A DNA stretch of 11,240 nucleotides from Candidatus Hadarchaeum sp. (lineage in GTDB: Archaea; Hadarchaeota; Hadarchaeia; Hadarchaeales; Hadarchaeaceae), in NCBI RefSeq assembly GCF_049969415.1, contig NZ_JBMFOX010000033.1:1-11240 (forward strand), written 5' to 3'. The translations under genes were made by a program, and so were the position numbers. The notes beneath the pieces are model-generated. The model made no database searches, was not told where the DNA came from, and was given only the letters and a program-made list of their open reading frames with translations. This document shows, piece by piece, positions 1-11,240 of this stretch. Every line of letters starts with the position of its first letter. The first letter of the stretch is position 1.

Positions 1-473
1 GAACAGGCCTTAGAAAATGCGGGGATAGCGAAGTTCAACTTAGTGTCTGTCTCAAGCATAATCCCCCCAAATGCAAATTGATACTGCGGGAAGAGGGTCT
101 GAAACACCTGCACGATGGACAAATCGTTTTCGGTGTTTTCGCGAGATGCAACAGCGACGAGCGGAGGAGGCTGATATCCGCGAGCATAGGTTGTGCCCTC
201 CCAGCGGATGAGAACACTTGCGGGTACATCAGCGAGCACGATGCCTACGGGCAAACGGCGGAAGAGGCTGGCGATTACGCGGAAGACGTGGCAGCCTCCA
301 TGCTCGCGAGCGCGTTGGGTTTACCTTTCGACCCGAACAAAAGCTGGGACGAAAGAAAAAAGATATGGAAGATTTCTAAAAAAATCGTGAAGACCACGAA
401 CATAACTCAGACCGCCTTAGTTAAGGAGGGGATGTGGTCAACGGTCCTCTGCGCAGCGGTTTTCGTGTTATAG
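1..473 (+). CDS. pdaD: Pyruvoyl-dependent arginine decarboxylase, 5' end outside window, with a -1 frameshift at ~66-72 (sequencing error, pseudogene or programmed frameshift)
   Basis: Frame 1 from base 1 reads EQALENAGIAKFNLVSVSSIIPPNAN* (TGA 79-81) and carries the family NLV-x-VSSI self-cleavage motif. Frame 3 continues CKLILREEGL...SASIGCA...GYISEH...AEDVAASMLAS...WSTVLCAAVFVL* to TAG at 471-473. Confidence 0.88.
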   Translation, partial: TGLRKCGDSEVQLSVCLKHNPPKCKLILREEGLKHLHDGQIVFGVFARCNSDERRRLISASIGCALPADENTCGYISEHDAYGQTAEEAGDYAEDVAASMLASALGLPFDPNKSWDERKKIWKISKKIVKTTNITQTALVKEGMWSTVLCAAVFVL

Positions 474-478
474 TACCT

Positions 479-1240
479 CTAATCTTTTTTCATGATGTAC
501 TTTTCCACGAGCTCCTTGAATGCAACGAACGGTTTTGCTTCCGCCACCGCGTTTAACACAGCTGGGCCCTTCGCGCGAATCCCGGCCATCACTTTAACAC
601 CTCGCTCGAAAAACGGCTCGGGAAGCGTGCTCGCGGTGGGGCCCGCGAGTGCCACAAACTTCGCGTTTTTCGATAGCTCGAGCAATCTATCGATGGTTCC
701 GTTGATCAAGCTCGACCCGCTTATAACCACGACATCCGCTTTTGGTAATATCGAGTCGACAAAGGTATCTGGCAGGGCATCCCCTCTCAACCAGGGGTTG
801 CGTTCAAAAACGTGAACCTCCCGGGCATTCTCCCTCAGCTTCCCGACTAGGGGCCTTATGTACCCAACCACTGCGACGCTGTCTTCCCTCCTCACATCCA
901 TCGCATCAAAGGCGTCCATTCCAAACTGCCGCTCGTAACCTTCGGAGTCCATCAGGTGTTGTGAGAGGGCATTCAACGTCGCGATGCCAACGGTCCTCTC
1001 GATCATGTCGAACGAGTTCGCCAACCGAGCGATCTCTAAAGCCTTGAAGCCGTGAAAGTCCCGCCTGCGACCCCAGTGGGAATGCCCAATGTCCTCGATC
1101 GGCGTGTGACAGAGACCGACGTAACTGTTATCGAGCATCACTGCGGTATAGCAGAGGCTCACGCATACTCTCGAGAGCGTCAAGTCTTCTAACCGCCTTC
1201 TCCGCTCTCCGACCAGATTCAATAACTCGTCAACAATCAA
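479..1240 (-). CDS. DUF364 family Rossmann-like protein (putative heavy-metal chelation; N-terminal DUF4213-like part)
   Basis: 253 aa ORF with IGIATLNALSQ, VAVVGY, VFERNP, DVVVISGSSLINGTIDRLLEL and GPTAS motifs. Its TTG start overlaps the upstream mrp stop (TTGA, 1237-1240). Confidence 0.85.
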   Translation of the reverse strand: MIVDELLNLVGERRRRLEDLTLSRVCVSLCYTAVMLDNSYVGLCHTPIEDIGHSHWGRRRDFHGFKALEIARLANSFDMIERTVGIATLNALSQHLMDSEGYERQFGMDAFDAMDVRREDSVAVVGYIRPLVGKLRENAREVHVFERNPWLRGDALPDTFVDSILPKADVVVISGSSLINGTIDRLLELSKNAKFVALAGPTASTLPEPFFERGVKVMAGIRAKGPAVLNAVAEAKPFVAFKELVEKYIMKKD

Positions 1241-2073
1241 GCTTGCGTCCCCCGCTGTTTCAAATACCCCTCCACTTTGTCAACCACCTGCATGAAGGCT
1301 TTGGCCGCCGGAGTTTCGGCATGCTCGATGATGAAAGGCGTTCCTCTGTCCGAGTCCTCACATATCCTCTGATCAATTGGAATCTTCCCTAAAAATGGTA
1401 CGCCGAGTTCCTCCGATATCTTCTGCCCACCGCCGATCCCCAAAATGTCAAATTCCGCACCACATTTTGGACAGACGAACCCGCTCATATTTTCGATTAC
1501 TCCCACTAATGGCACACGTAATTCCCTCGTAAACCCGATGGCTCGCTTGACGACTATTTGGGAAACTTCAGAAGGAGCAGTTATCATCAAGATGCCATCG
1601 ATATCGGATATTAACTGCATAATACTAAGGGGCTCGTCTCCGGTACCCGGAGGCAAATCTATAAGCAAAAAATCTAAATTACCCCAAGCCACGTCAGCTA
1701 AAAACTGCCTGATTGCGCCCATCTTCATGGGGCCGCGCCAGATGACCGGGGTCTCATCGTCCGGGAGTAAGAAATCCATGGAGACAACTCTTATGTCGAG
1801 TGGACCTTTTGCCGGAAAAATTCCCGGTGGTCCAGTAGCTAGCTCCCGACCCCTTATGCCAAGTATTTTGGGAATGCTCGGGCCGTGGATATCAACGTCC
1901 AAAACTCCTACCTTGTAGCCCTTTCGTGCCAGTGCGATAGCTAGGTTAGCGGCAATGGTGCTCTTGCCGACTCCACCCTTCCCACTCAAGATTGCCAGTT
2001 TATGCTTGATTTTGGCCATCCGTATTTTGATGCGTCTCTCCTGCTCCTGCATTTCTTTCGCTCGTTCTTCCAT
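1237..2073 (-). CDS. mrp: Mrp/NBP35 (ApbC) Fe-S cluster carrier ATPase
   Basis: SGKGGVGKST deviant Walker A, DVDIHGPSIP, PVIWRGP, DLPPGTGDE, ENMSGFVCPKC. ATG 2073 preferred because GGGTGG lies just upstream; GTG 2082 is the alternative start. Confidence 0.95.
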   Translation of the reverse strand: MEERAKEMQEQERRIKIRMAKIKHKLAILSGKGGVGKSTIAANLAIALARKGYKVGVLDVDIHGPSIPKILGIRGRELATGPPGIFPAKGPLDIRVVSMDFLLPDDETPVIWRGPMKMGAIRQFLADVAWGNLDFLLIDLPPGTGDEPLSIMQLISDIDGILMITAPSEVSQIVVKRAIGFTRELRVPLVGVIENMSGFVCPKCGAEFDILGIGGGQKISEELGVPFLGKIPIDQRICEDSDRGTPFIIEHAETPAAKAFMQVVDKVEGYLKQRGTQA

Positions 2074-2097
2074 CCGTTCCACCCATTACAAACTGCT

Positions 2098-2117
2098 TTA
2101 TTTGCGATTGCACAAAT
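2098..2117. promoter_or_regulatory. Palindromic operator copy 1 (TTATTTGC-GATT-GCACAAAT) in the mrp / methyltransferase divergent intergenic region
   Basis: Matches the copies at 9281-9300 and 10552-10571 and overlaps an AT-rich TATA-like tract (2114-2125). Confidence 0.7.
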
Positions 2118-2155
2118 ATAATTATCGTTGGTGAGGGTGAAGCGGCGGGAGTGGA

Positions 2156-2767
2156 ATGATGACGGCAGGCGATGTAGAAAAATTTGTGCGATTTTACAGC
2201 AGCGACTTCGGCAAGAAAATTCTAGCTAAAGAAGCCGAGTACCTAAAGGGCGAGTTGAAGGGGCGAAAAAAGATCCTCGATATCGGATGCGGAATTGGCT
2301 GTTTTGAAGAAATACTATCCGAGCTGAACATCGTTGGCCTCGACAACTCGAAGGAGGCATTAGAAGAAGCGAGAAGGAAGAGCGATAAAAGATTCGTGCT
2401 CGGGAATGCGGAACATCTTAATTTTCTCAACGGGACTTTTGACGGTGCCTTCACGGTGACGACCTTGGAATTCTTGGACAACTACAAAAAAGCCGTGGAC
2501 GAGGTGGCTAGAGTCCTGGAGCCGGGGGGCAAATTTGTTGCTATGATGTTAAATCCTGAATCGGAGTACTTCAAGTCTCATATAGGTAAACCGGACTCAT
2601 ATTTCAGGAAAATAAAGTGCACCAACCCAAAGGAGATAGAGCAACACATCTCTAGATCCTTTACCGCCGCTGGCGAATATTTTCTGGGGATACGAGGTCA
2701 AGAGATTTTCGACACTCGCGATAAGCATCTGGCAGCCCTGTACGTGGTCAAGGGAACAAGGGCTTAG
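2156..2767 (+). CDS. Class I SAM-dependent methyltransferase
   Basis: ILDIGCGIG motif I, GLDNS, GNAEHL-F-NGTFD, EVARVLEPGG. Confidence 0.9.
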   Translation: MMTAGDVEKFVRFYSSDFGKKILAKEAEYLKGELKGRKKILDIGCGIGCFEEILSELNIVGLDNSKEALEEARRKSDKRFVLGNAEHLNFLNGTFDGAFTVTTLEFLDNYKKAVDEVARVLEPGGKFVAMMLNPESEYFKSHIGKPDSYFRKIKCTNPKEIEQHISRSFTAAGEYFLGIRGQEIFDTRDKHLAALYVVKGTRA

Positions 2768-2783
2768 CTCTCACCAGATATTT

Positions 2784-3347
2784 TTATTTTGAGAAGATAG
2801 TGAAAGATTGCTCTGGCAGGAAATCAAACTCTTGCTTCACTCGATACCCGGCCTCTTTCATCTCTTCTATAATAGTTTCTCGAGGAACATAATGTCCAAA
2901 CATCCCGTGGAAGGTGAAAGGTTTGGCACGCTTGTACTCTACGATGGCAACTCTTCCTTTTGGTTTTAAGAAGCGTCTCAATTTTTTAAAATATTCCACT
3001 CGATTTGTTAAATGGTGGCACACATTGCGCATAAAGACTAAATCTAAACTTCTTTCGGGCAAAGCCAAGTCTTCTCCAGCAACAAGGATTGTTTCAACAT
3101 TATTGAGCCCCTGTTCCTTAGCACTGTTCTTGATAAATTTCAGAAATCTTGGATTTGTATCGACCGCGTACGCCCTCCCTTTTCTTCCAACGGCTTCTGC
3201 GAACCGTAGGCAAAAATAGCCGCCTCCAGCCCCAACATCCGCAACATTTTGTCCTTGCCGCAATTCTAAGGCTTCTAATATCTGATCAGGTTTATTTCTC
3301 GGATCAGAAGCTTTCCTGTTAAACACCTTTGCCTTAAGATTTCTCAT
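2784..3347 (-). CDS. Class I SAM-dependent methyltransferase (UbiE-like)
   Basis: VADVGAGGGYF, AYAVD, LPERSLDLVF, LKPKGRVAIVEY; GAGG RBS upstream of the ATG. Confidence 0.9.
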   Translation of the reverse strand: MRNLKAKVFNRKASDPRNKPDQILEALELRQGQNVADVGAGGGYFCLRFAEAVGRKGRAYAVDTNPRFLKFIKNSAKEQGLNNVETILVAGEDLALPERSLDLVFMRNVCHHLTNRVEYFKKLRRFLKPKGRVAIVEYKRAKPFTFHGMFGHYVPRETIIEEMKEAGYRVKQEFDFLPEQSFTIFSK

Positions 3348-3413
3348 GTTTATCCTCGTTTCATATTTATTTGGGAATTGTGTTTAGTTTATACTTGGTG
3401 GGGCTTGGATAAA

Positions 3414-3881
3414 ATGACAAAATTGAAACCGATATGGATAATCTACACCCCATACAAAAAGGACGGGGACGTGCCATACCAATCGTGCAAATCGAAAGAT
3501 GTGGATGAGATTGAAGTTTCCAAGGAGTACGAGGAGGGGCTGAAGGACATTGAAGGGTTCTCCCACCTCATAATTTTGTACGAGTTCCACAAGTCCGTAA
3601 AGCGCTCGGTAAAAAAGGAGCATTACTTGGAGTCGCAGGGGCTTTTGGTAAAACCTTACCTAGACGACACTCCACGCGGGCTTTTTGCCACGAGATCCCC
3701 AAACAGGCCAAACCCAATTGGGCTCACCATCGTCGAGTTGTTGGAGCGCAAAAGAAATGTCTTAAAGGTAAGGGGCGTCGACATGCTCGATGGCACCCCC
3801 CTCTTGGATATCAAACCCTATGTCCCGAAGTTTGACCAAAGAGATAACGTTAGAATCGGCTGGCTTGAAGGAAAGATATAG
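3414..3881 (+). CDS. tsaA: TsaA/TrmO (YaeB, UPF0066) family SAM-binding protein, N-terminal domain only
   Basis: GLKDIEGFSHL, GLFATRSPNRPNPIGLT, GVDMLDGTPLLDIKPY, RIGWL. ATG 3414 preferred to TTG 3378. tRNA m6t6A activity is not certain for this single-domain form. Confidence 0.9.
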   Translation: MTKLKPIWIIYTPYKKDGDVPYQSCKSKDVDEIEVSKEYEEGLKDIEGFSHLIILYEFHKSVKRSVKKEHYLESQGLLVKPYLDDTPRGLFATRSPNRPNPIGLTIVELLERKRNVLKVRGVDMLDGTPLLDIKPYVPKFDQRDNVRIGWLEGKI

Positions 3882-3894
3882 GATACACGATACC

Positions 3895-5241
3895 CTATCG
3901 ACTTCTTGCCGCATTCTGCGCTGCTAAAACCAAGGGATACATGGTGGGAGGAGGCGTGAGATAGGGATGGGTGGCCATCTGAAAAGTTTCCAGTTCTGTT
4001 ATAGTGAATCTCCTTTGTATCGCGATTCCGATCGCGTTAATTAACTCCCCGCAGGACATCCCTCCAGCCACTTGTCCCCCCAGCAAAGCTTGACCCTCCT
4101 TTGAGAAGACCAGCTTAACCAACACCTTATGCGCTCCAGGCAGTACGGAAGGATGTTTGTCCACGGCCTCGGCCTTACCTGATACTACATCAAATCCCTC
4201 TCGCTTTGCCGTGTTCTCCGTCAATCCGGCAGAACCCAACACGAGCCCGCCAACATAAGTGGAGAAGATCCCAATAGTCCCCTTGCTCTCGCGCAACACC
4301 TTCAATTTATATAGATTCGCTCCAGCAATTCGGGCTTCTGCGGTGGCGATGGAAGCAAGCAGGACAGGGGCGTCCTTCCGGGTAAAAAAGTCCCTCTTGC
4401 CCGCACAGTCTCCGATAGCGAAAATATCTGGGTCTATAGTTCTCATGTATTCATCAACCCAGATGCCCTTTCCTTTCCCAAGCTCAAGACCCGCATCTAG
4501 GGCCAACTTAGTATTAGGACTAGCCCCGACTCCTAAGATAACGCAATCGACATCGATTTCTTCCCCAGTTGAAAGGCGTACCTTCCTGACCCTTTCATCG
4601 CCCATCACTTCTTCCGCTCTGGTCCCGGTCAAAATTTTTACCCCTTGAGACGACAATTTCTCCTCAACCAGCTCGGAAAATTCAGGGTCAAAGGAATTGG
4701 CCAAAAGATGGGGGAGCATCTCCACTACGATGACTTCGGGACCTTTAACCTTAGAGAGCTCGTCTGCAAGTTCTACCCCGATAAAGCCCCCACCCAGAAC
4801 TAGAACCCTTTTACATCCCCTCGCATATTCTACCATATCCTTGAGATAGTTCAGGTCTTTTCTTATTGAATACACTCCCTTCTTATCAATACCTGGAATC
4901 GGCGGAAGGATGGGATTGGAACCGAGAGCCAAGACCAATTTTTCATAGCGATAATCATTGCCACTCTCGGTGTGGACTATCCTGTTCCGGCGGTCAATCT
5001 TGACCGCACGATCCACCACGAGTTCGATGTTCTGTTTTTCCAAGGACATGTAGCTCATAGCGTTTTGCTCGGGTTTTTCCAAGCTCGCGATCATGTAAGG
5101 TATGCCACACGGAATAACACCTCTCTCCACATCCCTCATCAGCAAGATTTTCTTTTCGGGATAATTCCAGCGAGCGGTAAGGGCGCAAACAATTCCCGCC
5201 GGTCCTCCACCTATGATTAAGACATCTGTATCCCTCTTCAT
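3895..5241 (-). CDS. FAD-dependent pyridine nucleotide-disulfide oxidoreductase (CoA-disulfide reductase / NADH oxidase family)
   Basis: IIGGGPAG FAD motif, single redox Cys in PCGIPY, GGGFIG..VEM NAD(H) motif, T-DPDIFAIGDC, C-terminal dimerisation domain. ATG 5241 follows an AGGGAG RBS (ORF track starts at 5262). Confidence 0.92.
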   Translation of the reverse strand: MKRDTDVLIIGGGPAGIVCALTARWNYPEKKILLMRDVERGVIPCGIPYMIASLEKPEQNAMSYMSLEKQNIELVVDRAVKIDRRNRIVHTESGNDYRYEKLVLALGSNPILPPIPGIDKKGVYSIRKDLNYLKDMVEYARGCKRVLVLGGGFIGVELADELSKVKGPEVIVVEMLPHLLANSFDPEFSELVEEKLSSQGVKILTGTRAEEVMGDERVRKVRLSTGEEIDVDCVILGVGASPNTKLALDAGLELGKGKGIWVDEYMRTIDPDIFAIGDCAGKRDFFTRKDAPVLLASIATAEARIAGANLYKLKVLRESKGTIGIFSTYVGGLVLGSAGLTENTAKREGFDVVSGKAEAVDKHPSVLPGAHKVLVKLVFSKEGQALLGGQVAGGMSCGELINAIGIAIQRRFTITELETFQMATHPYLTPPPTMYPLVLAAQNAARSR

Positions 5242-5374
5242 CGTATCTCCCTTTCTCATCATTCATCCAATTTAACTCTTTGCTTCATCATGCTTTGTTT
5301 TTAAACTTGTCTCATAAAACACGGAATGTAGTTAAATTAAATCTTCATTCTTGTTTTCCAGGCTATCTGCGACT

Positions 5375-5674
5375 TCATAACTTATCTTGTATAGATTTTA
5401 TTTTGCCTTCCATGCTCAGCGGCTTGTCGCGTCGGTCGTCAATTTTAATGATGGTGACTACCCTCAGGATTTCTTTATCAAAAACAGCTTCGTGCATCTT
5501 CTTAGCCAGATCTAAGAGATTCTTCAGATCTCCCTCCACGATTGTCCCCATTGAGGTTAGCTCATATTTAATGTCCTTCTCTTTGTTCAATATCTCAAGA
5601 GCATCCGCAACGTGTTTGCTAACCGAAGGTGTTTTTGCTCCCAGGGGGATGACACTTATCTCCATTATCGCCAT
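5375..5674 (-). CDS. MTH1187/DUF77 thiamine-binding protein family
   Basis: MAIMEISVIPLG..SVSKHVA, YELTSMGTIVEG, RVVTIIKIDDRRDK; GGAGG RBS before ATG 5674. Confidence 0.92.
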   Translation of the reverse strand: MAIMEISVIPLGAKTPSVSKHVADALEILNKEKDIKYELTSMGTIVEGDLKNLLDLAKKMHEAVFDKEILRVVTIIKIDDRRDKPLSMEGKIKSIQDKL

Positions 5675-5727
5675 TTTTATCTCCTCCGTTTCAGCTTTTC
5701 CCAACTGCTATCAGGATTCGGATTAAC

Positions 5728-5931
5728 TTAGCCTTGCTGGGCCCAAGGCGGCCCTCCGGCGCCACGTCTCCCGCCAGGCGGCCCCTTGTCGATGCGATGA
5801 ATCATCGCTGCCGGAGCACCACACTTGGGACATGCCGGTGGCTTGGGCACCCCTTGGGGAACTTCTATAATGTTTCCGCAGGCGAAGCACCTGAACCTTT
5901 TGGTCGGCACCATAGCAGGTGGTTGCGCCAT
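5728..5931 (-). CDS. Small zinc-ribbon/rubredoxin-like protein (CxxC-x15-CxxC) with G/R/P-rich tail
   Basis: 67 aa, FRCFACG...CPKCG...IHRI. The ATG overlaps the upstream ATPase stop (TGATG) and follows a GGGGGTGA RBS. Confidence 0.8.
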   Translation of the reverse strand: MAQPPAMVPTKRFRCFACGNIIEVPQGVPKPPACPKCGAPAAMIHRIDKGPPGGRRGAGGPPWAQQG

Positions 5932-6857
5932 CAGATTTCACCCCCTTTCAGTCTGTCTCGAATGGTTAAAATTAAGGACATCAACGCTTTTCCGGCTGGG
6001 CTGTTCGGAGCTTTCTTCATCAGAGGCTCGCCCGCGATGTAGGAACGCAAGAGTTCCTCATCCAAGGGGATTTCAGCGGTTAACTTGATCCCTCGTTCAT
6101 GACATATATTTAGGAGTTCGTCCTTTAGCCCACCTGGAACATCGGCCTTGTTCAAAACCACTTCCACAGGTAATTCCAGCTCTCGGGCGAGGGCTAAGAT
6201 AAATTTCAAATCGTGCGTGCCCAAGGGCGTGGGTTCGGTCACGGCTAGGGCAAGGTCGGAAACCCATAAGGGCTGAGCCACGGTGTTGTGAACCCCTGGG
6301 GCGGTGTCGATTACTGCCACATCGTATCCTCCATTCCGCAACTCGCTGATGGCACGGAGCACCGTCGCGCGCGCCATCAAAGGGGATCTTGGCTCCGTCG
6401 GCTTCAGCTCGCCCACCACGAGCTTGAGTCCGTCGGCGTCTGCGGTGTAAGTAGTTCCGATCGTTTTCCATCCGTCCCCTATGGCCCCATATCCACAAAC
6501 CAACTTGCATGCTCCGCATCCCGAACAGAGTTCCTCAAAAAATATCGGAGTTTCTCCTTGGAGACTGATTAACGCATGTTCATGGCAAGCGTCCACGCAT
6601 TTCATACATCCAACACATTTCGTTTCTTCGATTACCGGTCTAAAGGTCCTTACCTCGTTGCCGGCATCGAGTTTCATCCCCAACAACGCTGCGCAGCACG
6701 GTCCATCGACATCAGCATCGACCAACATGACCTTTAAGCCCTCCATGTTAAGGCCCACAGCCAAGTTCACGGCGACCATGGTTTTGCCTGTCCCCCCCTT
6801 CCCTCCAGTAACAGCCACAATCGGCACGTCCACGTTTTTCTTCCTGAGAGTCACCAC
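5931..6857 (-). CDS. MinD-superfamily P-loop ATPase with inserted 2x[4Fe-4S] ferredoxin domain (COG1149-type), copy B
   Basis: TGGKGGTGKT, DADVDGP, CVGCMKCVDAC and CSGCGACKLVC, DTAPG, VTEPTPLGTHDL, VLNKAD. Confidence 0.92.
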   Translation of the reverse strand: MVTLRKKNVDVPIVAVTGGKGGTGKTMVAVNLAVGLNMEGLKVMLVDADVDGPCCAALLGMKLDAGNEVRTFRPVIEETKCVGCMKCVDACHEHALISLQGETPIFFEELCSGCGACKLVCGYGAIGDGWKTIGTTYTADADGLKLVVGELKPTEPRSPLMARATVLRAISELRNGGYDVAVIDTAPGVHNTVAQPLWVSDLALAVTEPTPLGTHDLKFILALARELELPVEVVLNKADVPGGLKDELLNICHERGIKLTAEIPLDEELLRSYIAGEPLMKKAPNSPAGKALMSLILTIRDRLKGGEI

Positions 6858-7747
6858 AAAATTTCCCCCACTTTATTTCCTATCGCAGCCAGAGCTTTCG
6901 AGGCTTTTGTATCAGGATTAAACTCTATGATTGGCTTCATTTGTACAAGTGCTTTGGCGACTTCGTAGTCGATGGGAATTTCACCTAAAAACTGAAACCC
7001 GAGTTCACGCACAACCCAATCTTTGAGGACGATTTCGAAATCCTTTGAATAACCGCTCTTGTTTATCACCACACCAGCGGGGACATCGAAGTGCTTTATG
7101 ACTCGGGACAAGCGCTCAAGGTTCCTTTTCGCGGCAGGTGTAGGTTCTGTCACAGCGATGACATAGTCCGCGCCCGTGATGGAGGCTATGACCGGACAAC
7201 CTATGCCAGGTGCAGCGTCAACTATAAGCACATCGCTCCCTTCGTCCTGCGCTTTCCTTCGCGCGATATTCCTTATGCTCGCCACGAGGTGTCCGGAGTT
7301 GTGTTCACCAAGTTTTAACTTCCCGGTTGCGCATCCGAACCCATATTTAGTCTCTTCAATGCTGAGCGTGCCTGTGTCTGCCTCGTTTACCTCGATCGCA
7401 TTGGTGGGACACACGAGCTTGCAAACACCACATCCCTCACACATAAGTTCCACCACTATTGCCCGTCCGCCGTCTGGCATTGCCATCGCTCCGAAGGGGC
7501 AAACTTCGACGCACTTGCCGCAGGAAACGCATTTGTCTACATCAACTCTGGCCTTCTCCGAAGCTCTGACATTCATAGAAAAAATATTCTTTCCGCCGCC
7601 GAGCGCCAGTAATAGGTCAGGGGCATCCACGTCCGCATCTGCCACGAAAACTTTTACCCCCCTTTTAGCCAGAAAAACGGCGAGGGAAGCCGCAACCGTG
7701 GTCTTGCCAGTACCACCTTTCCCGGAAGCGACCACAATTTCCTTCAA
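6851..7747 (-). CDS. MinD-superfamily P-loop ATPase with inserted 2x[4Fe-4S] ferredoxin domain (COG1149-type), copy A
   Basis: SGKGGTGKTT, DADVDAPDL, CVSCGKCVEVCP and CEGCGVCKLVCP, GEHNSGHLV, DAAPGIGCPV, VTEPT. TTG start after GGGTG. Confidence 0.93.
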   Translation of the reverse strand: MKEIVVASGKGGTGKTTVAASLAVFLAKRGVKVFVADADVDAPDLLLALGGGKNIFSMNVRASEKARVDVDKCVSCGKCVEVCPFGAMAMPDGGRAIVVELMCEGCGVCKLVCPTNAIEVNEADTGTLSIEETKYGFGCATGKLKLGEHNSGHLVASIRNIARRKAQDEGSDVLIVDAAPGIGCPVIASITGADYVIAVTEPTPAAKRNLERLSRVIKHFDVPAGVVINKSGYSKDFEIVLKDWVVRELGFQFLGEIPIDYEVAKALVQMKPIIEFNPDTKASKALAAIGNKVGEILW

Positions 7748-7757
7748 CAGCTACACC

Positions 7758-8651
7758 CTAGCGTGAGCCGATGATGTACTGGTTTATGGCGTCTTTAATT
7801 TTCACGCCGGGTGGAACCATCACCATTTGAATTCCGAATTGGCCAGCAACAGCAGACACGTTAGGGCCAAATCTCCCGGCCAAGATATGCCCCACGCCTT
7901 CGGCGGCGAGCATCTGAACCACGGCTATCCCAACTCCGCTTGGCGAAGAGATAAATTGGTTAGGTAGGATCTTCACACTTTTGATATCTTTACCATCGAT
8001 TTCCACGATAGTGAAGTTCGGACATCTGCCAAACATGGGCGACACCATGTCGTCGAGCCCTCCCGGTCCTTGGCTTGCAACACCTACCTTAAAGCGGCCT
8101 GTCGGTGGAGGAGAAGGCTTCGGCGTTTGTTGCGGAGGATATTGCGTTGATGGAACCATCGGCGGGTAAGGGCCCATTCCCCCTCCCATCCATCCCCACA
8201 TTCCACGTCCCATACCCATTCCTCGGCCCATTCCCATCCCGGGACCAAAAGGGAACATAACGGGAGTCGGAGATGATTCAGCTCCTTCCTTGGATTCTTT
8301 GCAGGCGTCCTCCAGTGAAGCCAGCTTGGCCTTGTCTTCAACCAGTTCATTCACGGCTTCTTTGACTGTTTCAGCCGAGGTCATGTAAACACCGATACCG
8401 CTCTGCGCAAGAAGTTGCATCGCCTTGGGCCCCATTCCCCGTGTCACTACTGCGTCCACGCCGCTGGATGCCAAGATCTCAGCTGGAGTTTTATCGTAAC
8501 CAAAATGAGTTCCCCGGTTGTCGATGATGCTCACGCCGACTATTTTACTATTCTTGAGCTCCACTACGGTGAATACGTCGCAACGGCCGAGGTGAGGGGA
8601 GATTGTCGCATCGAGTCCGCCAGGCGTGTTTGATGGTATGGCTATTTTCAT
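7758..8651 (-). CDS. Tandem NifB/NifX-family (IPR003731, IssA-like) protein with G/M/R- and P-rich linker
   Basis: Domain 1: MKIAIP..ISPHLGRCDVF..GMGPKA..GIGVY. Domain 2: KVGVAS..VSPMFGRCPNF..GVGIAVVQ..GRFGPN. Linker: GMGMGRGMGMGRGMWGWMGGGMG followed by a Pro-rich stretch. Confidence 0.9.
   Translation of the reverse strand: MKIAIPSNTPGGLDATISPHLGRCDVFTVVELKNSKIVGVSIIDNRGTHFGYDKTPAEILASSGVDAVVTRGMGPKAMQLLAQSGIGVYMTSAETVKEAVNELVEDKAKLASLEDACKESKEGAESSPTPVMFPFGPGMGMGRGMGMGRGMWGWMGGGMGPYPPMVPSTQYPPQQTPKPSPPPTGRFKVGVASQGPGGLDDMVSPMFGRCPNFTIVEIDGKDIKSVKILPNQFISSPSGVGIAVVQMLAAEGVGHILAGRFGPNVSAVAGQFGIQMVMVPPGVKIKDAINQYIIGSR
8172..8240 (-). repeat. Coding low-complexity repeat (GMGMGR)x2-GMWGWMGGGMG
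   Basis: Imperfect GGRATGGG-type repeats inside the NifX-like gene. Confidence 0.7.
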
Positions 8652-8694
8652 GGCGATTCTACATCCTTGATTTTGTAATGGCGTTGTTCACGCT

Positions 8695-8979
8695 TTACTC
8701 TTTCTTGGTCAGTGCTCCCTTAAGTTCACTTATCCTAGCCTCGACGCCTTTGAGTTCCTCCTCGAGCTCTGCCTTGTATGCCTCCAGAGCTTCGATCTCC
8801 TGCTCCGGCGTCGGTGGAGAAGGCACGAACGGCGGAAGTGGGTAGTAAGGTGCCGCTGGGGGTTGTTGTGCAGGTTGCGAGGGTCGCTGCGGCGCTTGCG
8901 CGTATGGCGGATAGGGTGGATACATCACGTATGGATTTATGTACCACCACCAGCATCTCCAACCTCTAGGCCACCACAT
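8695..8979 (-). CDS. DUF5320-like small protein: W-rich N-terminus, P/Y/Q-rich middle, C-terminal coiled coil
   Basis: Likely start ATG 8979 after a strong AAGGAGGT RBS. 94 aa: MWWPRGWRCWWW...PEQEIEALEAYKAELEEELKGVEARISELK. Confidence 0.82.
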   Translation of the reverse strand: MWWPRGWRCWWWYINPYVMYPPYPPYAQAPQRPSQPAQQPPAAPYYPLPPFVPSPPTPEQEIEALEAYKAELEEELKGVEARISELKGALTKKE

Positions 8980-9007
8980 TTTTTCTAACCTCCTTTCATT
9001 TTGTTTG

Positions 9008-9265
9008 TCAATATCCCGGGTAGGGGTACTGCGGATAGGTCGCGTAGGGGTATCCGTAGGTGCCTGGATAAGCCCACCACCACCTCGGAAGCCATGGGAA
9101 TCTAGCACAGACCCAAGGGTTCCACCACCAACCTCTGCCGAAACCGTACAACCATCCCGGCCTCTGCCAAGGCGGTAAATAGCTGAAAGGACCCCTACCA
9201 GGCCAAGGCCCAAACCAGCCGCGACCACCTCGACCTATTCCCCAACCGAAACCTGGCCACCACAT
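9008..9265 (-). CDS. W/G/P/Y-rich low-complexity small protein (resembles the N-terminal part of DUF5320-like proteins)
   Basis: 85 aa with a GAGGTGG RBS, first gene after a BRE/TATA promoter. Motifs GPWPGRGPFSYLPPWQRPGW and CARFPWLPRWWW. Confidence 0.8.
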   Translation of the reverse strand: MWWPGFGWGIGRGGRGWFGPWPGRGPFSYLPPWQRPGWLYGFGRGWWWNPWVCARFPWLPRWWWAYPGTYGYPYATYPQYPYPGY

Positions 9266-9280
9266 ATTTTACCACCTCTG

Positions 9281-9300
9281 TTTTGTGTTATTGCACATAA
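9281..9300. promoter_or_regulatory. Palindromic operator copy 2 (TTTTGTGT-TATT-GCACATAA)
   Basis: Most symmetric copy; lies between the TATA box and the RBS of the 9265 gene. Confidence 0.78.
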
Positions 9301-9302
9301 TT

Positions 9303-9317
9303 ATATTTAAGCTTTTC
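9303..9317 (-). promoter_or_regulatory. Archaeal BRE/TATA promoter of the 9265-5375 operon
   Basis: Minus strand reads GAAAAGC-TTAAATAT, ending 38 nt upstream of ATG 9265. Confidence 0.75.
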
Positions 9318-9325
9318 GATGGTTT

Positions 9326-10189
9326 TTACAATGAGACAACATCACCGGTTCTAAGCTGCCTGCACTTCTCCCCGAAGACTTCGATAAACTTTGCAATTGC
9401 TTTCTCTCCGGTACAATGACACGGCATGATGGCTTTCACACCAGCCCTTTGGAGTTCCCCGACGGTTGCTCCTATCCTTTTAGCGCTCGCGTTCGCCAAG
9501 TGAAAACCCCCAATCACAGCATGCACTCTCTTCGAACCTGTCGCCTTCTGAGCCTGCTTGATGGTGTTAATCAAACCTGCGTGAGCGCAACCCGTGATTA
9601 TCACCGATCCTTTACTCCTGACTGTCACGAAAAGTGCCTGATCATCTATCATGTGATCATCGACTAGCTTGCCCCCTTTTGTGGTCTTGAATCCTTTGAC
9701 CCTTTCCAATTGGCTGGTCCTTTTAATCTCTCCGCTTACCAAAACTCCAGGCATTATGGATGTTTGTCCTCGTTTCAGGATTAAGATGCCGCCCGATTTC
9801 TTCAGCTCTGAGGCCTGAAAGGGGATGCCAGCTTTTTTGAGACGTTTCTTCTTCATCACGAATTTTGGCTCGAGCGCTCCCGGATGAGCTATCACCGGCA
9901 CTTTCCGGCCGATGTGTTTCAGGATGCCCAAGAGTCCGCCGGTGTGGTCGTAGTGCCCATGGCTCAGCACAATCGAATCTACCTTTCTCAACTCGATGCC
10001 TAGTTTCTGGGCATTTTGCATGACGATATCCGCAGATGGCCCGGTATCCATCAGCAAGTTGGTCGTATGTCCTCCAGCTTTCAGCTCGATGAAAAATGAT
10101 AGCCCGTGCTTGGCGGCGAGTTCTGACTGGAGCTGGTTTTTGAAATCATCGACCAAGACCGTGAGCCGCATCCCATCGACTTGGCTCAA
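9326..10189 (-). CDS. MBL-fold metallo-hydrolase (COG1237 / MJ0301-like)
   Basis: HGLSF, LMDTG, LSHGHYDHTGG, DDQAL, TGCAHAG, IGGFHL, PCHCTG. Its TTG start overlaps the DUF134 stop. Confidence 0.92.
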   Translation of the reverse strand: MSQVDGMRLTVLVDDFKNQLQSELAAKHGLSFFIELKAGGHTTNLLMDTGPSADIVMQNAQKLGIELRKVDSIVLSHGHYDHTGGLLGILKHIGRKVPVIAHPGALEPKFVMKKKRLKKAGIPFQASELKKSGGILILKRGQTSIMPGVLVSGEIKRTSQLERVKGFKTTKGGKLVDDHMIDDQALFVTVRSKGSVIITGCAHAGLINTIKQAQKATGSKRVHAVIGGFHLANASAKRIGATVGELQRAGVKAIMPCHCTGEKAIAKFIEVFGEKCRQLRTGDVVSL

Positions 10190-10536
10190 ATACCCCTCTC
10201 CTCTGAAGGCGGGGGAGGTGCAGGCGTGATCACGAGTGGACGGCGTTCGACGAGCATACAGGCAACCTTTTTCCTAGCACTTTCCAAGCAGCGCCACACC
10301 GTCCCCCGCGAGACTTTCATTCGTTTGGCAGCCTCCTCCTGGTTCAGCCCTTCGTGATAGATGAGACAGAATGCCTCGAGCTCATCGTATGTCATGTAGA
10401 TGGGCTCGCCTCCTGATACTGGCAGATTATCCGGGCCAATGGGTGCAAACCCTGCTACTTCCAACATCACGCGGACGAACCTAGGTTTCATTGGCCTCCC
10501 AGGCCCAAGCCGTCGCCAACACCATCTTCGACGCAT
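10186..10536 (-). CDS. DUF134 (UPF0251) HTH DNA-binding protein, probable regulator of the cluster
   Basis: GRPMKPR, FAP, DELEAFCL..EGLNQEEAAKRMKVSRGTVWRCLESARKKVA..LVE. Confidence 0.92.
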   Translation of the reverse strand: MRRRWCWRRLGPGRPMKPRFVRVMLEVAGFAPIGPDNLPVSGGEPIYMTYDELEAFCLIYHEGLNQEEAAKRMKVSRGTVWRCLESARKKVACMLVERRPLVITPAPPPPSEERGI

Positions 10537-10551
10537 GTAAATCTGTATAAT

Positions 10552-10571
10552 TTTTGTTCATTTGCACGTAA
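10552..10571. promoter_or_regulatory. Palindromic operator copy 3 (TTTTGTTC-ATTT-GCACGTAA) upstream of the DUF134 gene
   Basis: Ends 15 nt before ATG 10536 and overlaps a BRE/TATA-like GGAAATC-TTTTAC on the minus strand. Confidence 0.72.
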
Positions 10572-10600
10572 AAGATTTCCTATTGTTTGGGCCAGTTTTT

Positions 10601-11004
10601 CTACAAGCCAAACGGGTTCAGGTGATAAATTATGCTACCGACCGCTACTGCTAATAGGAAAGTTCCGGCGGGTATCGCGATCGCATCCTTCTATCCCAGC
10701 TCTCCCGCCAAAACAGCGACCATGGCTATGCAGGGCACGTAGATCGCCACCACCAGCGCAAACACGAAAACTGGAGTGCGTTCATCAAGCTAGCAAGACC
10801 TGCCGGACCAGCGAGGGACACGAGCAGCACGAGTGCTCCTTCTTTGCGGATGAAGCCGTAGATCAAGGGAATGATGGCAACGGCGGGGAGACCGAGCAGG
10901 CCAGTAGTGAAGGGCGCAAGCGGCCCAGTTATCGAATTCAGCACACCCGAGACATGGAGGATACCTATCACAAAGCTGCCCACGAGCAGCAAAGGCACCG
11001 CGAT
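10601..11004 (-). pseudogene. feoB: Ferrous iron transporter FeoB, C-terminal membrane fragment, inactivated
   Basis: Reads IAVPLLLVGSFVIGIL..PLAPFTTGLLGLP..IYGFIRKE..MNALQF, then a frameshift at 10767-10770, then VFALVVAIYVPCIAMVAVLAGELG*KDA..YHLNPFGL*. Premature TAG at 10691-10693 replaces the usual Trp. No GTPase or N-terminal part upstream (in-frame TAA at 11008-11010). Confidence 0.85.
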
Positions 11005-11099
11005 TGGTTAGTCGGGTTACGAAGAATAAAGCAGGCGCAGAGGGGATCCAATTCGACAAAATAATCACAGCCAGCAATTTCTTTGATTTTTTGTTTTCG

Positions 11100-11120
11100 C
11101 CGGGTTCAAATCCCGGGGAC
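11100..11120 (+). other. Isolated tRNA T-arm fragment (possible att-site scar)
   Basis: CCGGG-TTCAAAT-CCCGG is a perfect T-stem/loop, with no D-arm, anticodon arm or matching acceptor 5' strand upstream. Confidence 0.55.
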
Positions 11121-11240
11121 GATATGATTATACCCTTTGCAGCACGCACGCAAAAAACGGGATGCTTCGTTTTTGTGTTCGAAAGCAGGTTTTGTTTTTG
11201 AAATCAGGCGCCGGCGAACACTTGACGAACCCCGCCCCGT

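Follow-up and report, generated by a model that had tools for sequence, protein, structure and literature searches.

How strict anaerobes buffer, store and distribute iron-sulfur (Fe-S) material is poorly understood. Proteins of the NifX/NafY/NifB-C family (PF02579) bind complex Fe-S clusters non-covalently, and to our knowledge IssA of Pyrococcus furiosus is the only characterised Fe-S store. IssA consists of an IPR003731 domain followed by a Pro-rich and then a cationic, aromatic and Gly-rich tail that binds thioferrate, and forms thioferrate particles of 20-300 nm (PMC5524996). Its expression is induced by sulfur and iron. The other relevant system is the ORP complex of Desulfovibrio, the function of which has been unassigned since 2011. 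Orp3, Orp4 and Orp8 co-purify, and MrpORP transfers Fe-S to them in vitro (PMC6345978); expression of the orp genes is controlled by sigma54, OrpR and IHF (PMC3897727, PMC8359166).

Here we describe a gene cluster in a stretch of 11,240 nucleotides from Candidatus Hadarchaeum sp., an uncultured archaeon of heat springs (Archaea; Hadarchaeota; RefSeq assembly GCF_049969415.1, contig NZ_JBMFOX010000033.1, positions 1 to 11,240), hereinafter the window, which is contig C33 of a genome of 1.47 Mb that is 95.25% complete. The cluster encodes a DUF134 (UPF0251) protein, a metallo-beta-lactamase (MBL) fold hydrolase, two small proteins (WG85 and D5320), a tandem NifX-like protein, two ferredoxin-containing ATPases (A and B), a zinc ribbon protein (ZnR) and a DUF77 protein; the gene for an Mrp ATPase lies 3.6 kb from it. 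The initial annotation, made from the sequence alone, took this for an undescribed Fe-S storage and trafficking system built with low-complexity 'sticker' proteins. However, the core of the system, namely NifX, the paired ferredoxin-MinD ATPases and an MrpORP-like Mrp, matches the genes of the Desulfovibrio ORP system, to which IssA-like Gly/Arg/aromatic tails are joined. In the window and its relatives we observe a defined gene set, its conservation, a shared operator, fusions that link the components and an iron-gene context; the view that the cluster is a single conserved unit under common regulation, with a link to iron and Fe-S handling, is supported at the level of sequence. As for the function, we consider it about an even call that the cluster is an ORP/IssA-type module which holds and hands over labile iron-sulfur (iron-sulfide) material and is expressed from an archaeal promoter repressed by DUF134.

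Gene content and conservation

According to open reading frame (ORF) and Pfam calls, all cluster genes are on the minus strand, in the order DUF134, MBL hydrolase, WG85, D5320, tandem NifX, ATPase A, ATPase B, ZnR and DUF77 (Table 1). The DUF134 and MBL genes overlap by 4 nt (given the TTG start of the latter), ATPase A and ATPase B by 7 nt, and ATPase B and ZnR by 1 nt; the NifX and ATPase A genes are 10 nt apart, and the remaining intergenic gaps in the cluster are 23-60 nt. The initial annotation was accurate in its description of nine real, tightly coupled genes, of Gly/Arg/Trp/Pro-rich segments (for the compositions and the model confidence, which is consistent with disorder in WG85 and the NifX linker, see below) and of a window without nitrogenase genes, to which can be added that there is no PF00148 match anywhere in the genome, at its 95.25% completeness.

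Every cluster gene except DUF77 recurs in relatives. Six closely related loci keep the order WG85, D5320, single NifX (in four of the six), tandem NifX, ATPase A, ATPase B; DUF134 is located upstream in the three loci that show one, the MBL gene lies between DUF134 and WG85 in two, in four loci ZnR comes next after ATPase B, one of these copies being a truncated fragment, and the Mrp-DUF364 pair is found a few kb off in three of the six. Because homologues of WG85 and D5320 occur in the same order at all six loci, these two genes are not chance ORFs. In a sister family, the locus is composed of two DUF5320-type genes, a fused NifX-DUF5320 gene, NifX, DUF134, Mrp, NifX, ATPase B, ATPase A, DUF364 and MBL.

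A wider set consisted of the best 80 loci from a scan of one genome per species, which identified 305 relatives of WG85. All 80 are archaeal, chiefly from Bathyarchaeia, with the rest from Hadarchaeota, Nitrososphaeria, Thermoplasmata, Thermofilaceae, Desulfurococcales, Thermococci, Methanodesulfokora and Hecatellales. NifX is encoded in 67 of these WG85-type loci, DUF134 in 66, ATPases A and B in 46 and 42, respectively (mutually adjacent in most), Mrp in 27, D5320 in 22, MBL in 19 and ZnR in 17; all these counts are lower bounds because many loci are cut by contig ends. The DUF134 gene is mostly divergent from WG85, and the two share a common intergenic region. The minimal conserved unit is DUF134 divergent from DUF5320-NifX behind the operator that is described below.

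Among 41 genomes of the order, which are kin to one another so that the pattern is descriptive, DUF134 is present in 21, NifX in 20, both in 18, the ATPase in 13 and WG85 in 11. DUF134 is encoded in every genome that has the ATPase (13) or WG85 (11).

A shared predicted operator next to a TATA-like box

The gap upstream of WG85 contains a TATA-like box and a palindrome, TGTGC-N4-GCACA, which sits between this box and the ribosome site (GAGGTGG, 9272-9278). An A/T-rich box at the TATA position is present in 6/6 related loci, and the complete arrangement of TATA box, operator and ribosome site precedes WG85 in all six close relatives. We searched the genome with a position weight matrix (PWM) built from the relatives' sites only, for which the maximum in a reversed-genome control was 18.6 bits. 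The top three matches genome-wide are located before WG85 (24.3 bits), before Mrp (23.7 bits) and before a DUF5320-NifX pair on contig C1 (19.0 bits); matches under approximately 18 bits (on C41, C2 and others) fall in the control range. The Mrp operator is kept in 5/5 related loci, and Mrp and DUF364 are found inside the cluster of the sister family, in agreement with the original assignment of Mrp to the system.

Allowing for no more than one mismatch and a distance of no more than 160 nt, TGTGC-N4-GCACA is present upstream of 71 of the 78 WG85-type genes across archaeal phyla (34 exact), against an expectation of 0.2 and a maximum of 3 in 200 shuffles. The 80 loci, 933 kb in total, contain 134 such sites, of which 105 are located upstream of WG85 and/or DUF134 genes, and the operator is absent before the control genes of these loci, namely ATPase A (0/46), TrmO (0/11) and a methyltransferase (0/10). 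Intergenic regions between divergent DUF134 and WG85 genes of Bathyarchaeia often contain two operators in tandem.

In the sister family (L032-L036 region), a different palindrome, TGAAT-N4-ATTCA, occupies the same position with the same geometry in 5/6 loci, and DUF134 belongs to another subtype, scoring 95-101 bits on PF02001 vs 59 in the window. In these loci the palindrome precedes the first DUF5320-type gene and directly follows the TATA box, frequently as tandem copies.

Given its position, the co-occurrence and the sister-family co-variation, DUF134 is the likely repressor acting at the predicted operator TGTGC-N4-GCACA, in line with its earlier designation as the likely regulator. The placement of the operator directly past the TATA box suggests repression. 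A degenerate operator-like site upstream of DUF134 itself has a counterpart, TGTGCGAATGAACA, at the same place before the paralogous DUF134 gene on C1; because the site in the window scores below 12 bits in the PWM scan, it is a weak candidate for DUF134 autoregulation. A scan for inverted repeats with a seed of 6 missed the operator since its arms are 5 nt long, and scans of the window for sigma70 promoters and terminators, neither of which applies to archaea, were at chance level.

Small proteins of the DUF5320 type

WG85 is built of an unusual set of residues (W 15, G 17, P 15, Y 10, R 7, no D or E; isoelectric point (pI) 10.0; the genome background of W is 1.1%), and its AlphaFold2 model has a mean predicted local distance difference test (pLDDT) score of 47.9. 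The protein has 341 homologues at E<=1e-3, and PF17253 (DUF5320) is annotated on 29 of the 120 matches listed. Treatment of such segments as plain low-complexity 'stickers' did not hold: in the WG85 family (63 sequences), the motif PG.GP..PPW.RPG is invariant and C.RFP.LPR.WWA is near-invariant. A full DUF5320-like protein encoded on contig C1 shares 74% identity with WG85 over 38 aa. This 95-aa protein combines the WG85 motif and the DUF5320 coiled coil in one chain, and its gene is followed by a NifX gene. By these similarities, we assign WG85 to the N-terminal part of a DUF5320 subtype of archaea, as a module that lacks the coiled coil.

The Pro-rich coiled-coil protein, D5320, is present as originally described, except that its true start is ATG 8979, the longer ORF from GTG 9228 being an over-extension. 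The protein begins with MWWPRGWRCWWW, continues with a Pro/Gln-rich middle part and ends with a C-terminal coiled coil of four heptads; the PF17253 match is confined to the C-terminal part and falls 2.4 bits below the gathering cut-off of 27. It has 25 homologues, for which the sole source name given is Hadesarchaea. We assign D5320 as the C-terminal module of DUF5320 on the basis of this match. Because the 95-aa protein of C1 and protein P0260, which carries the CARFPWLPRWWWA motif (the second WG85 motif) together with the D5320 tail in a single chain, both join their parts, WG85 and D5320 appear to have arisen by splitting or duplication of a DUF5320 protein, of an archaeal subtype characterised by the PPWQRPG motif.

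The tandem NifX-like protein

The NifX-like protein of the cluster contains two NifX domains (aa 1-119 and 179-297) separated by a linker (aa 120-178), in which a Gly/Met/Arg/Trp-rich part is followed by a Pro-rich part. AlphaFold2 pLDDT is approximately 90-95 for both domains and below 50 for linker residues 120-178, and the low values in this linker and in WG85 are consistent with disorder, of which they are no proof. Counted over 72 aa, the linker contains G 15, P 15, M 9, R 3 and 7 aromatic residues (pI 9.5). Its repeat GMGRGMG recurs in the tail of a NifX-family protein from Thermococcus with which domain 2 shares 37% identity. In its chemistry the linker resembles the IssA tail, as the initial annotation had implied. 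Relatives of known structure include MTH1175 (2e-11) and, for domain 2 (residues 188-295), the orange protein 2wfb (E=3.7e-9). The protein has 29 full-length relatives, named as Hadarchaeaceae/Hodarchaeaceae, and the full tandem is encoded in 7 of the 41 genomes of the order.

A tree built from 34 selected domain rows, in which the Thermococcus protein of IssA-like layout stands in for P. furiosus IssA, separates two domain types with support of 99/99. Domain 1 groups with the Cys/His-tailed NifX of a Bathyarchaeia Mrp-NifX-NifX-ATPase operon, and domain 2 with IssA-like, DUF5320-fused and WG85-adjacent NifX proteins in a group of 19 rows supported at 88/89. As the two domains fall into separate groups, the tandem protein can be described as two NifX types placed around an IssA-like tail. 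The domain-1 group also contains the long-branch C58 NifX, which may be misplaced. The Bathyarchaeia operon (in loci such as L071, L073, L078, L100 and L104) has the order Mrp-NifX-NifX-ATPase B-ATPase A, with one NifX carrying a short GQGRGRG tail and the other a Cys/His tail (...EGCLHAEEHEH).

NifX and DUF5320 are frequently fused. By hand count, 48 of the 120 relatives listed for the tandem NifX are NifX-DUF5320 fusions, from archaea and bacteria by their names, and the fusion is confirmed by Pfam in L031, L036 and L101. The small proteins probably serve the NifX carrier as conserved partners, and they may have the same relation to the regulator.

These features could also be those of a large IssA-like Fe-S particle or condensate, in which the Trp/Gly/Arg-rich small proteins would form a sticker scaffold and the NifX domains would nucleate a thioferrate-like mineral. 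Such a particle would have a precedent in the 20-300 nm thioferrate particles of IssA (PMC5524996) and would make use of the IssA-tail chemistry of the linker and of WG85, with its 15 W, 17 G, 7 R and no acidic residues, of the low AlphaFold2 confidence of both, and of the multivalency afforded by the coiled coil of D5320 and the NifX-DUF5320 fusions. However, the segments keep invariant linear motifs, beyond composition, which indicates specific binding; Arg is scarce in the linker, at 3 of 72 residues, as opposed to 7 cationic residues among the 70 of the IssA tail; and two of the five supposed 'sticker' segments, the DUF134 arm and the zinc ribbon tail, fit better as parts of the regulator. 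A particle of this kind is therefore viewed here as possible but unlikely.

DUF134, the zinc ribbon and the fusions that connect them

Across 65 aligned archaeal homologues of DUF134, an R.R.R.G..GRP.KPR arm and an SRGT.WR helix are conserved. The G/R/P-rich N-terminus had been counted among the stickers; since the Arg-rich GRP.KPR arm, which we take to be AT-hook-like, is shared by the homologues, it is probably a DNA-binding element instead. The same alignment contains no conserved Cys column, and sensing by cysteines of DUF134 itself was rejected on these grounds.

Fusions of DUF134 were counted among 37 representatives of at least 150 aa, taken from the best 150 matches of a library-wide search. 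Five of these proteins contain NifX, seven a Zn_ribbon_8-like ribbon and one a PF04060 Fe-S motif. The fused ribbons show the pattern CxxC...CPxC..IHR followed by a Gly/Arg tail, which is the layout of ZnR. The G/R/P-rich tail of the latter, MIHRxDKGPPGGRRG, is conserved in an 18-row family alignment, and BLASTP aligns ZnR with P0267 (E=9e-7, 29% over 56 aa, with the IHR motif included). Thus, ZnR, which had been described as a CxxC microprotein and listed as another sticker, probably corresponds to the module that DUF134 fusion proteins carry at their C-terminus, here encoded as a separate protein. Because the fusions link regulator, ribbon, NifX and DUF5320, these components are bound together into what we interpret as one functional unit.

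A Thermoplasmata metagenome-assembled genome contains, in addition, a single 200-aa ORF (L057:7653-8255, plus strand) that joins DUF134 (88.7 bits) to the WG85 motif and DUF5320. As a recurrent architecture, DUF134-DUF5320 was rejected, L057 being the only instance and none of the 150 best DUF134 representatives spanning both halves. The closest solved relatives of the MBL hydrolase are 2p4z and TM1679/3h3e, both uncharacterised, and a paralogous DUF134-MBL pair is encoded on contig C1. In the literature searched, DUF134 and its synonyms are named in 4 papers and DUF5320 in 2, and the search listings together with one passage of PMC5886521 gave no account of the operator, of a role of DUF134 or of a link to DUF5320; in that passage UPF0251 figures as a row of a mutation table, and an apparent text match for DUF134 in PMC10434189 is really DUF1349.

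It is conceivable that WG85, D5320, the zinc ribbon and one NifX domain are a sensor or co-regulator set for DUF134 rather than a store or a scaffold. The DUF134 fusions to NifX, ribbon and Fe-S motif, the match between ZnR and the fused ribbon, which extends to the IHR motif and the Gly/Arg tail, the minimal DUF134 and DUF5320-NifX unit behind the operator, and the lack of conserved Cys in stand-alone DUF134 would all fit such a set. Nevertheless, a sensor would not have to be the chief product under regulation, the abundant NifX-DUF5320 fusions with IssA-like tails look like a cargo protein, and the ATPase pair and Mrp fit a pure sensor poorly, so we regard this possibility as distinctly unlikely.

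ATPases, Mrp and DUF364

ATPases A and B each contain GKGGTGKT and two CxxCxxCxxxC motifs, and are 32% identical over 280 aa. No solved PDB chain spans the whole architecture of ATPase A. Mrp scores 352 bits on the NF041136 MrpORP model, where the match covers positions 1-250 of 365 and the cut-off is 450, compared with 222 bits on the ApbC model; the Pfam scan of Mrp reveals no PF02579 or C-terminal NifX-like domain. The DUF364 gene overlaps the Mrp stop codon by 4 nt and is found 3' of Mrp in L026, L027 and L028, and within the cluster in sister-family loci L032, L033 and L035.

The MinD/ParA family membership of the ATPases might suggest a MinD-like positioning or cell-division accessory system, as first proposed for ORP. 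The literature lists the ORP complex as 'putatively involved in cell division' (PMC6345978, PMC8359166). In Desulfovibrio, MrpORP takes a polar position (PMC6345978). However, no division gene recurs in the neighbourhoods scanned, and the ferredoxin inserts, NifX, Mrp and the iron regulators indicate metal-cluster chemistry; we consider a division role of this locus extremely improbable.

Iron-related context

The genes that recur in the vicinity of the 80 loci encode small ferritin-like proteins (15 loci), ABC ATPases (13), DtxR-FeoA (12), IscU (12), Lrp (11), radical SAM proteins (9), flavodoxin (9), FeoB (8), OsmC (8) and peroxiredoxin (7). Both DUF134 copies of the genome adjoin feoB. The copy in the window is a decayed feoB at 10604-11001 on the minus strand, beside DUF134, whose final 133 codons can be aligned in two frames with the intact FeoB of C1; the lesions are a frameshift and an in-frame TAG at a Trp position of the paralogue, and 240 nt up to the contig end are unmatched. 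The C1 region at approximately 30500-46300 (L117) is an iron/oxidative-stress island. It encodes ferritin-like protein, peroxiredoxin, rubrerythrin, Lrp, NifX and the full DUF5320-like gene behind an operator, together with VIT1, radical SAM, ZIP, DtxR, a second MBL-DUF134 pair with an operator-like site, intact FeoB, DtxR-FeoA and ferritin.

This context bears on the question of whether the cargo could be a heterometal sulfide (a Mo, W or Cu thiometallate), for example for W/Mo enzymes. Domain 2 is homologous to the 2wfb orange protein, a Mo-Cu-S binder (PMC6345978), the linker is Met-rich (9/72), and aldehyde:ferredoxin oxidoreductase genes are present in 7 of the 80 loci. However, there is no Mo/W transport, uptake or cofactor family among the 24 recurrent neighbour clusters scanned, in which FeoB, DtxR-FeoA, IscU and ferritin-like genes recur, and feoB is found beside both DUF134 copies. 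Handling of heterometals by this system appears very improbable.

SufB/SufD (PF01458) was not found in the eight genomes of the genus (g1) or in two of the neighbouring genus (g2); among the 41 genomes of the order, a SufB/SufD-type scaffold is present in 26, and the genomes without SufB mostly carry IscU-type genes. The possibility that the cluster is the only Fe-S assembly system of the organism was rejected, given that IscU is encoded in 7/8 genomes of the genus.

Proposed function

In the ORP/IssA-type module that we favour, the two NifX-like domains would hold anionic Fe-S species. The linker, rich in Gly, Arg, Met and aromatic residues, and the DUF5320-type proteins could stabilise or organise these species, as proposed for the IssA tail, and the coiled coil of D5320 might add multivalency. 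The ATPase A/B pair would use ATP and four [4Fe-4S] clusters to load or release the cargo, and the MrpORP-like Mrp would either mature the ATPases or pass on clusters. DUF134 bound at TGTGC-N4-GCACA just 3' of the TATA box would block transcription, and the regulator, itself lacking a conserved cysteine, probably reads the state of the cargo via the zinc ribbon, NifX and DUF5320, partner modules with which it forms fusion proteins in other organisms.

A more elaborate version of this scheme, which we put forward as quite improbable, is that DUF134, ZnR, the DUF5320 pair and NifX form a closed feedback circuit that gauges free inorganic Fe-S polyanion. The cargo would compete with DNA for the repressor and in this way induce the machinery for its own storage and transfer, and the arms and tails rich in Arg and Gly, that of the repressor included, would all bind the same thioferrate-like anionic polymer. 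If true, this would amount to a ferritin-plus-regulator logic for iron sulfide that is widespread in anaerobic archaea.

Several observations weigh against the proposed storage and transfer module. The ORP complex is itself functionally unsolved, with the tentative cell-division role cited above, and orange protein binds a Mo-Cu-S cluster, not Fe-S (PMC6345978). Each NifX domain has one conserved Cys only. The genome has two IscU genes, and the module is accessory, since DUF134 is present in 21 and the ATPases in 13 of the 41 genomes of the order. With respect to regulation, the pairing of DUF134 with the palindrome draws on position, co-occurrence and one case of regulator/operator co-variation, and the Mrp operator is confined to this lineage, with 1 in 25 Mrp genes having it elsewhere. 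The L057 fusion may be rare or an assembly artefact and is given little weight because there is no second case among the best 150 DUF134 representatives. Finally, the compared loci are kin, so that the counts overstate their independence.

The locus and its relatives unite ORP and IssA through gene order, fusions and a common DNA switch. They offer experimental handles in the form of an operator of 14 bp, of DUF134 as a candidate repressor whose sensor-like modules are detachable, and of a minimal DUF5320-NifX unit. If the proposal is true, the DUF134 and DUF5320 families gain a role, and the regulon could be traced by its operator in Bathyarchaeia, Hadarchaeota, Korarchaeota and other uncultured archaea.

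Other features of the window

The DUF77 gene at the end of the cluster is found in 2 of the 80 wider loci and in 3 of 12 loci of the order. Its inclusion as a component of the system was rejected because of the 2/80 count; it is a lineage-specific neighbour, possibly co-transcribed, outside the conserved core. In a contig of the same genus (G004 contig C23), an IscU-type gene (L026:4438-4797; NifU_N, E=4e-32) occupies the place of DUF77, just 3' of the zinc ribbon gene. The pyridine nucleotide-disulfide oxidoreductase that comes next in the window has a VIPCG active-site Cys and scores 239 bits on TIGR03385, under the cut-off of 578.8. It adjoins the cluster in L025, L030 and L031 and is present in 3 of the 80 wider loci, following the cluster in Hadarchaeota only. 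In the sulfur response of Pyrococcus, IssA is paired with a CoA-dependent sulfur reductase of the same family; a comparable link is conceivable for the present locus. Sequences of pyruvoyl arginine decarboxylase are located beside both DUF134 regions, at 3-473 (plus strand) in the window and at C1:37529-37852, and also in 7/80 loci.

Table 1. Coordinates of the genes and predicted regulatory sites in the window
Feature	Position	Strand	Evidence
DUF134 (UPF0251) helix-turn-helix protein	10186-10536	-	PF02001 59.4 bits, cut-off 27
MBL-fold hydrolase	9326-10189	-	PF00753 47.3 bits; start TTG 10189 or ATG 10171
TATA-like box TTAAATATAA, predicted internal archaeal promoter	9301-9310	-	60-nt gap before WG85; read from sequence
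Predicted operator palindrome TGTGCAATAACACA, consensus TGTGC-N4-GCACA	9284-9297	.	top PWM match, 24.3 bits
WG85, 85-aa Trp/Gly/Pro/Tyr-rich protein	9008-9265	-	no Pfam match
D5320, 94-aa coiled-coil protein	8695-8979	-	PF17253 24.6 bits, residues 50-86
Tandem NifX-like protein	7758-8651	-	PF02579 132 bits, two stretches
ATPase A, MinD/ParA P-loop with inserted 2x[4Fe-4S] ferredoxin domain (Orp3/Orp4 type)	6851-7747	-	PF10609, PF01656, Fer4 families
ATPase B, paralogue of ATPase A, same architecture	5931-6857	-	GKGGTGKT and two CxxCxxCxxxC motifs; 32% identical to ATPase A over 280 aa
ZnR, 67-aa CxxC...CPxC zinc ribbon	5728-5931	-	Zn_ribbon_8 26.8 bits, cut-off 34.4
Mrp/NBP35 Fe-S carrier ATPase, MrpORP type	1237-2082	-	PF10609 322 bits; GKGGVGKS and CPKC
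Second predicted operator, minus strand TGTGCAATCGCAAA	2101-2114	.	just past A/T-rich box upstream of Mrp; PWM 23.7 bits
DUF364/DUF4213, 'putative heavy-metal chelation'	479-1240	-	PF04016 134.8 bits, PF13938 62.4 bits
Degenerate operator-like site CGTGCAAATGAACA, 2 arm mismatches	10555-10568	-	approximately 20 nt upstream of DUF134 start
DUF77/Thiamine_BP, MTH1187-family thiamine-binding-like protein	5375-5704	-	PF01910 109.5 bits; TIGR00106 107 bits
Pyridine nucleotide-disulfide oxidoreductase, CoA-disulfide reductase/NADH oxidase type	3895-5262	-	PF07992 218 bits

Comparison with known systems

At the level of protein families, the regulator is a clear member of DUF134 (PF02001, UPF0251, COG1342; 59.4 bits). 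The relationship to DUF5320 is less direct: D5320 resembles the coiled-coil end of the family and many WG85 homologues carry the PF17253 annotation, but WG85 itself has no match and D5320 is below threshold, the homology being apparent from other sequence comparisons. With the nitrogenase carriers NifX, NafY and NifB-C the cluster shares PF02579. A role in FeMo-cofactor assembly is excluded because there is no NifDK-family gene in the window or in the genome.

IssA (PF2025) of P. furiosus, likewise from an anaerobic archaeon, has a PF02579 domain followed by an unstructured stretch of Pro, Gly, Arg and aromatic residues. The tandem protein has a stretch of similar chemistry, predicted to be unstructured, after its domain 1, and domain 2 groups with the GMGRG-tailed NifX protein of Thermococcus, not with domain 1. 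In IssA, however, the tail is C-terminal, whereas here it is internal, between the NifX domains, with the Gly/Arg part before the Pro part. The linker is Met-rich and, with 3 Arg and 7 aromatic residues in 72, has fewer cationic and aromatic residues than the published IssA tail (70 residues, of which 7 are cationic and 14 aromatic), and in the present cluster the aromatic and cationic load is on separate small proteins.

The comparison with the ORP complex of D. vulgaris Hildenborough (Orp3, Orp4, Orp5, Orp8 and Orp9/MrpORP) covers Orp3, Orp4, Orp8 and Orp9. Both systems have paired MinD ATPases with two [4Fe-4S] motifs each and a NifX-like ('Di-Nase') homologue of orange protein, represented here by domain 2 through its similarity to 2wfb, and both occur in an anaerobe without nitrogenase. 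The Mrp of the window matches best the MrpORP model, that is, the P-loop half of Orp9; MrpORP is a fusion of Mrp/NBP35 and a C-terminal Di-Nase, whereas Mrp here lacks the latter and is below the NF041136 cut-off. In contrast to ORP, the NifX protein is a tandem of two types with an IssA-like linker, and the additional components comprise DUF134 and an MBL hydrolase as well as a zinc ribbon and a pair of DUF5320-type proteins. The regulation also differs, with sigma54 and OrpR in Desulfovibrio as opposed to an archaeal TATA-type promoter, a palindrome and a DUF134 gene here; the Pfam scan identified no enhancer-binding protein (EBP) gene in the window. On this comparison, the locus is best classified as a Hadarchaeota variant of the known, functionally unsolved ORP gene set, with IssA-like features and a predicted DUF134 operator.

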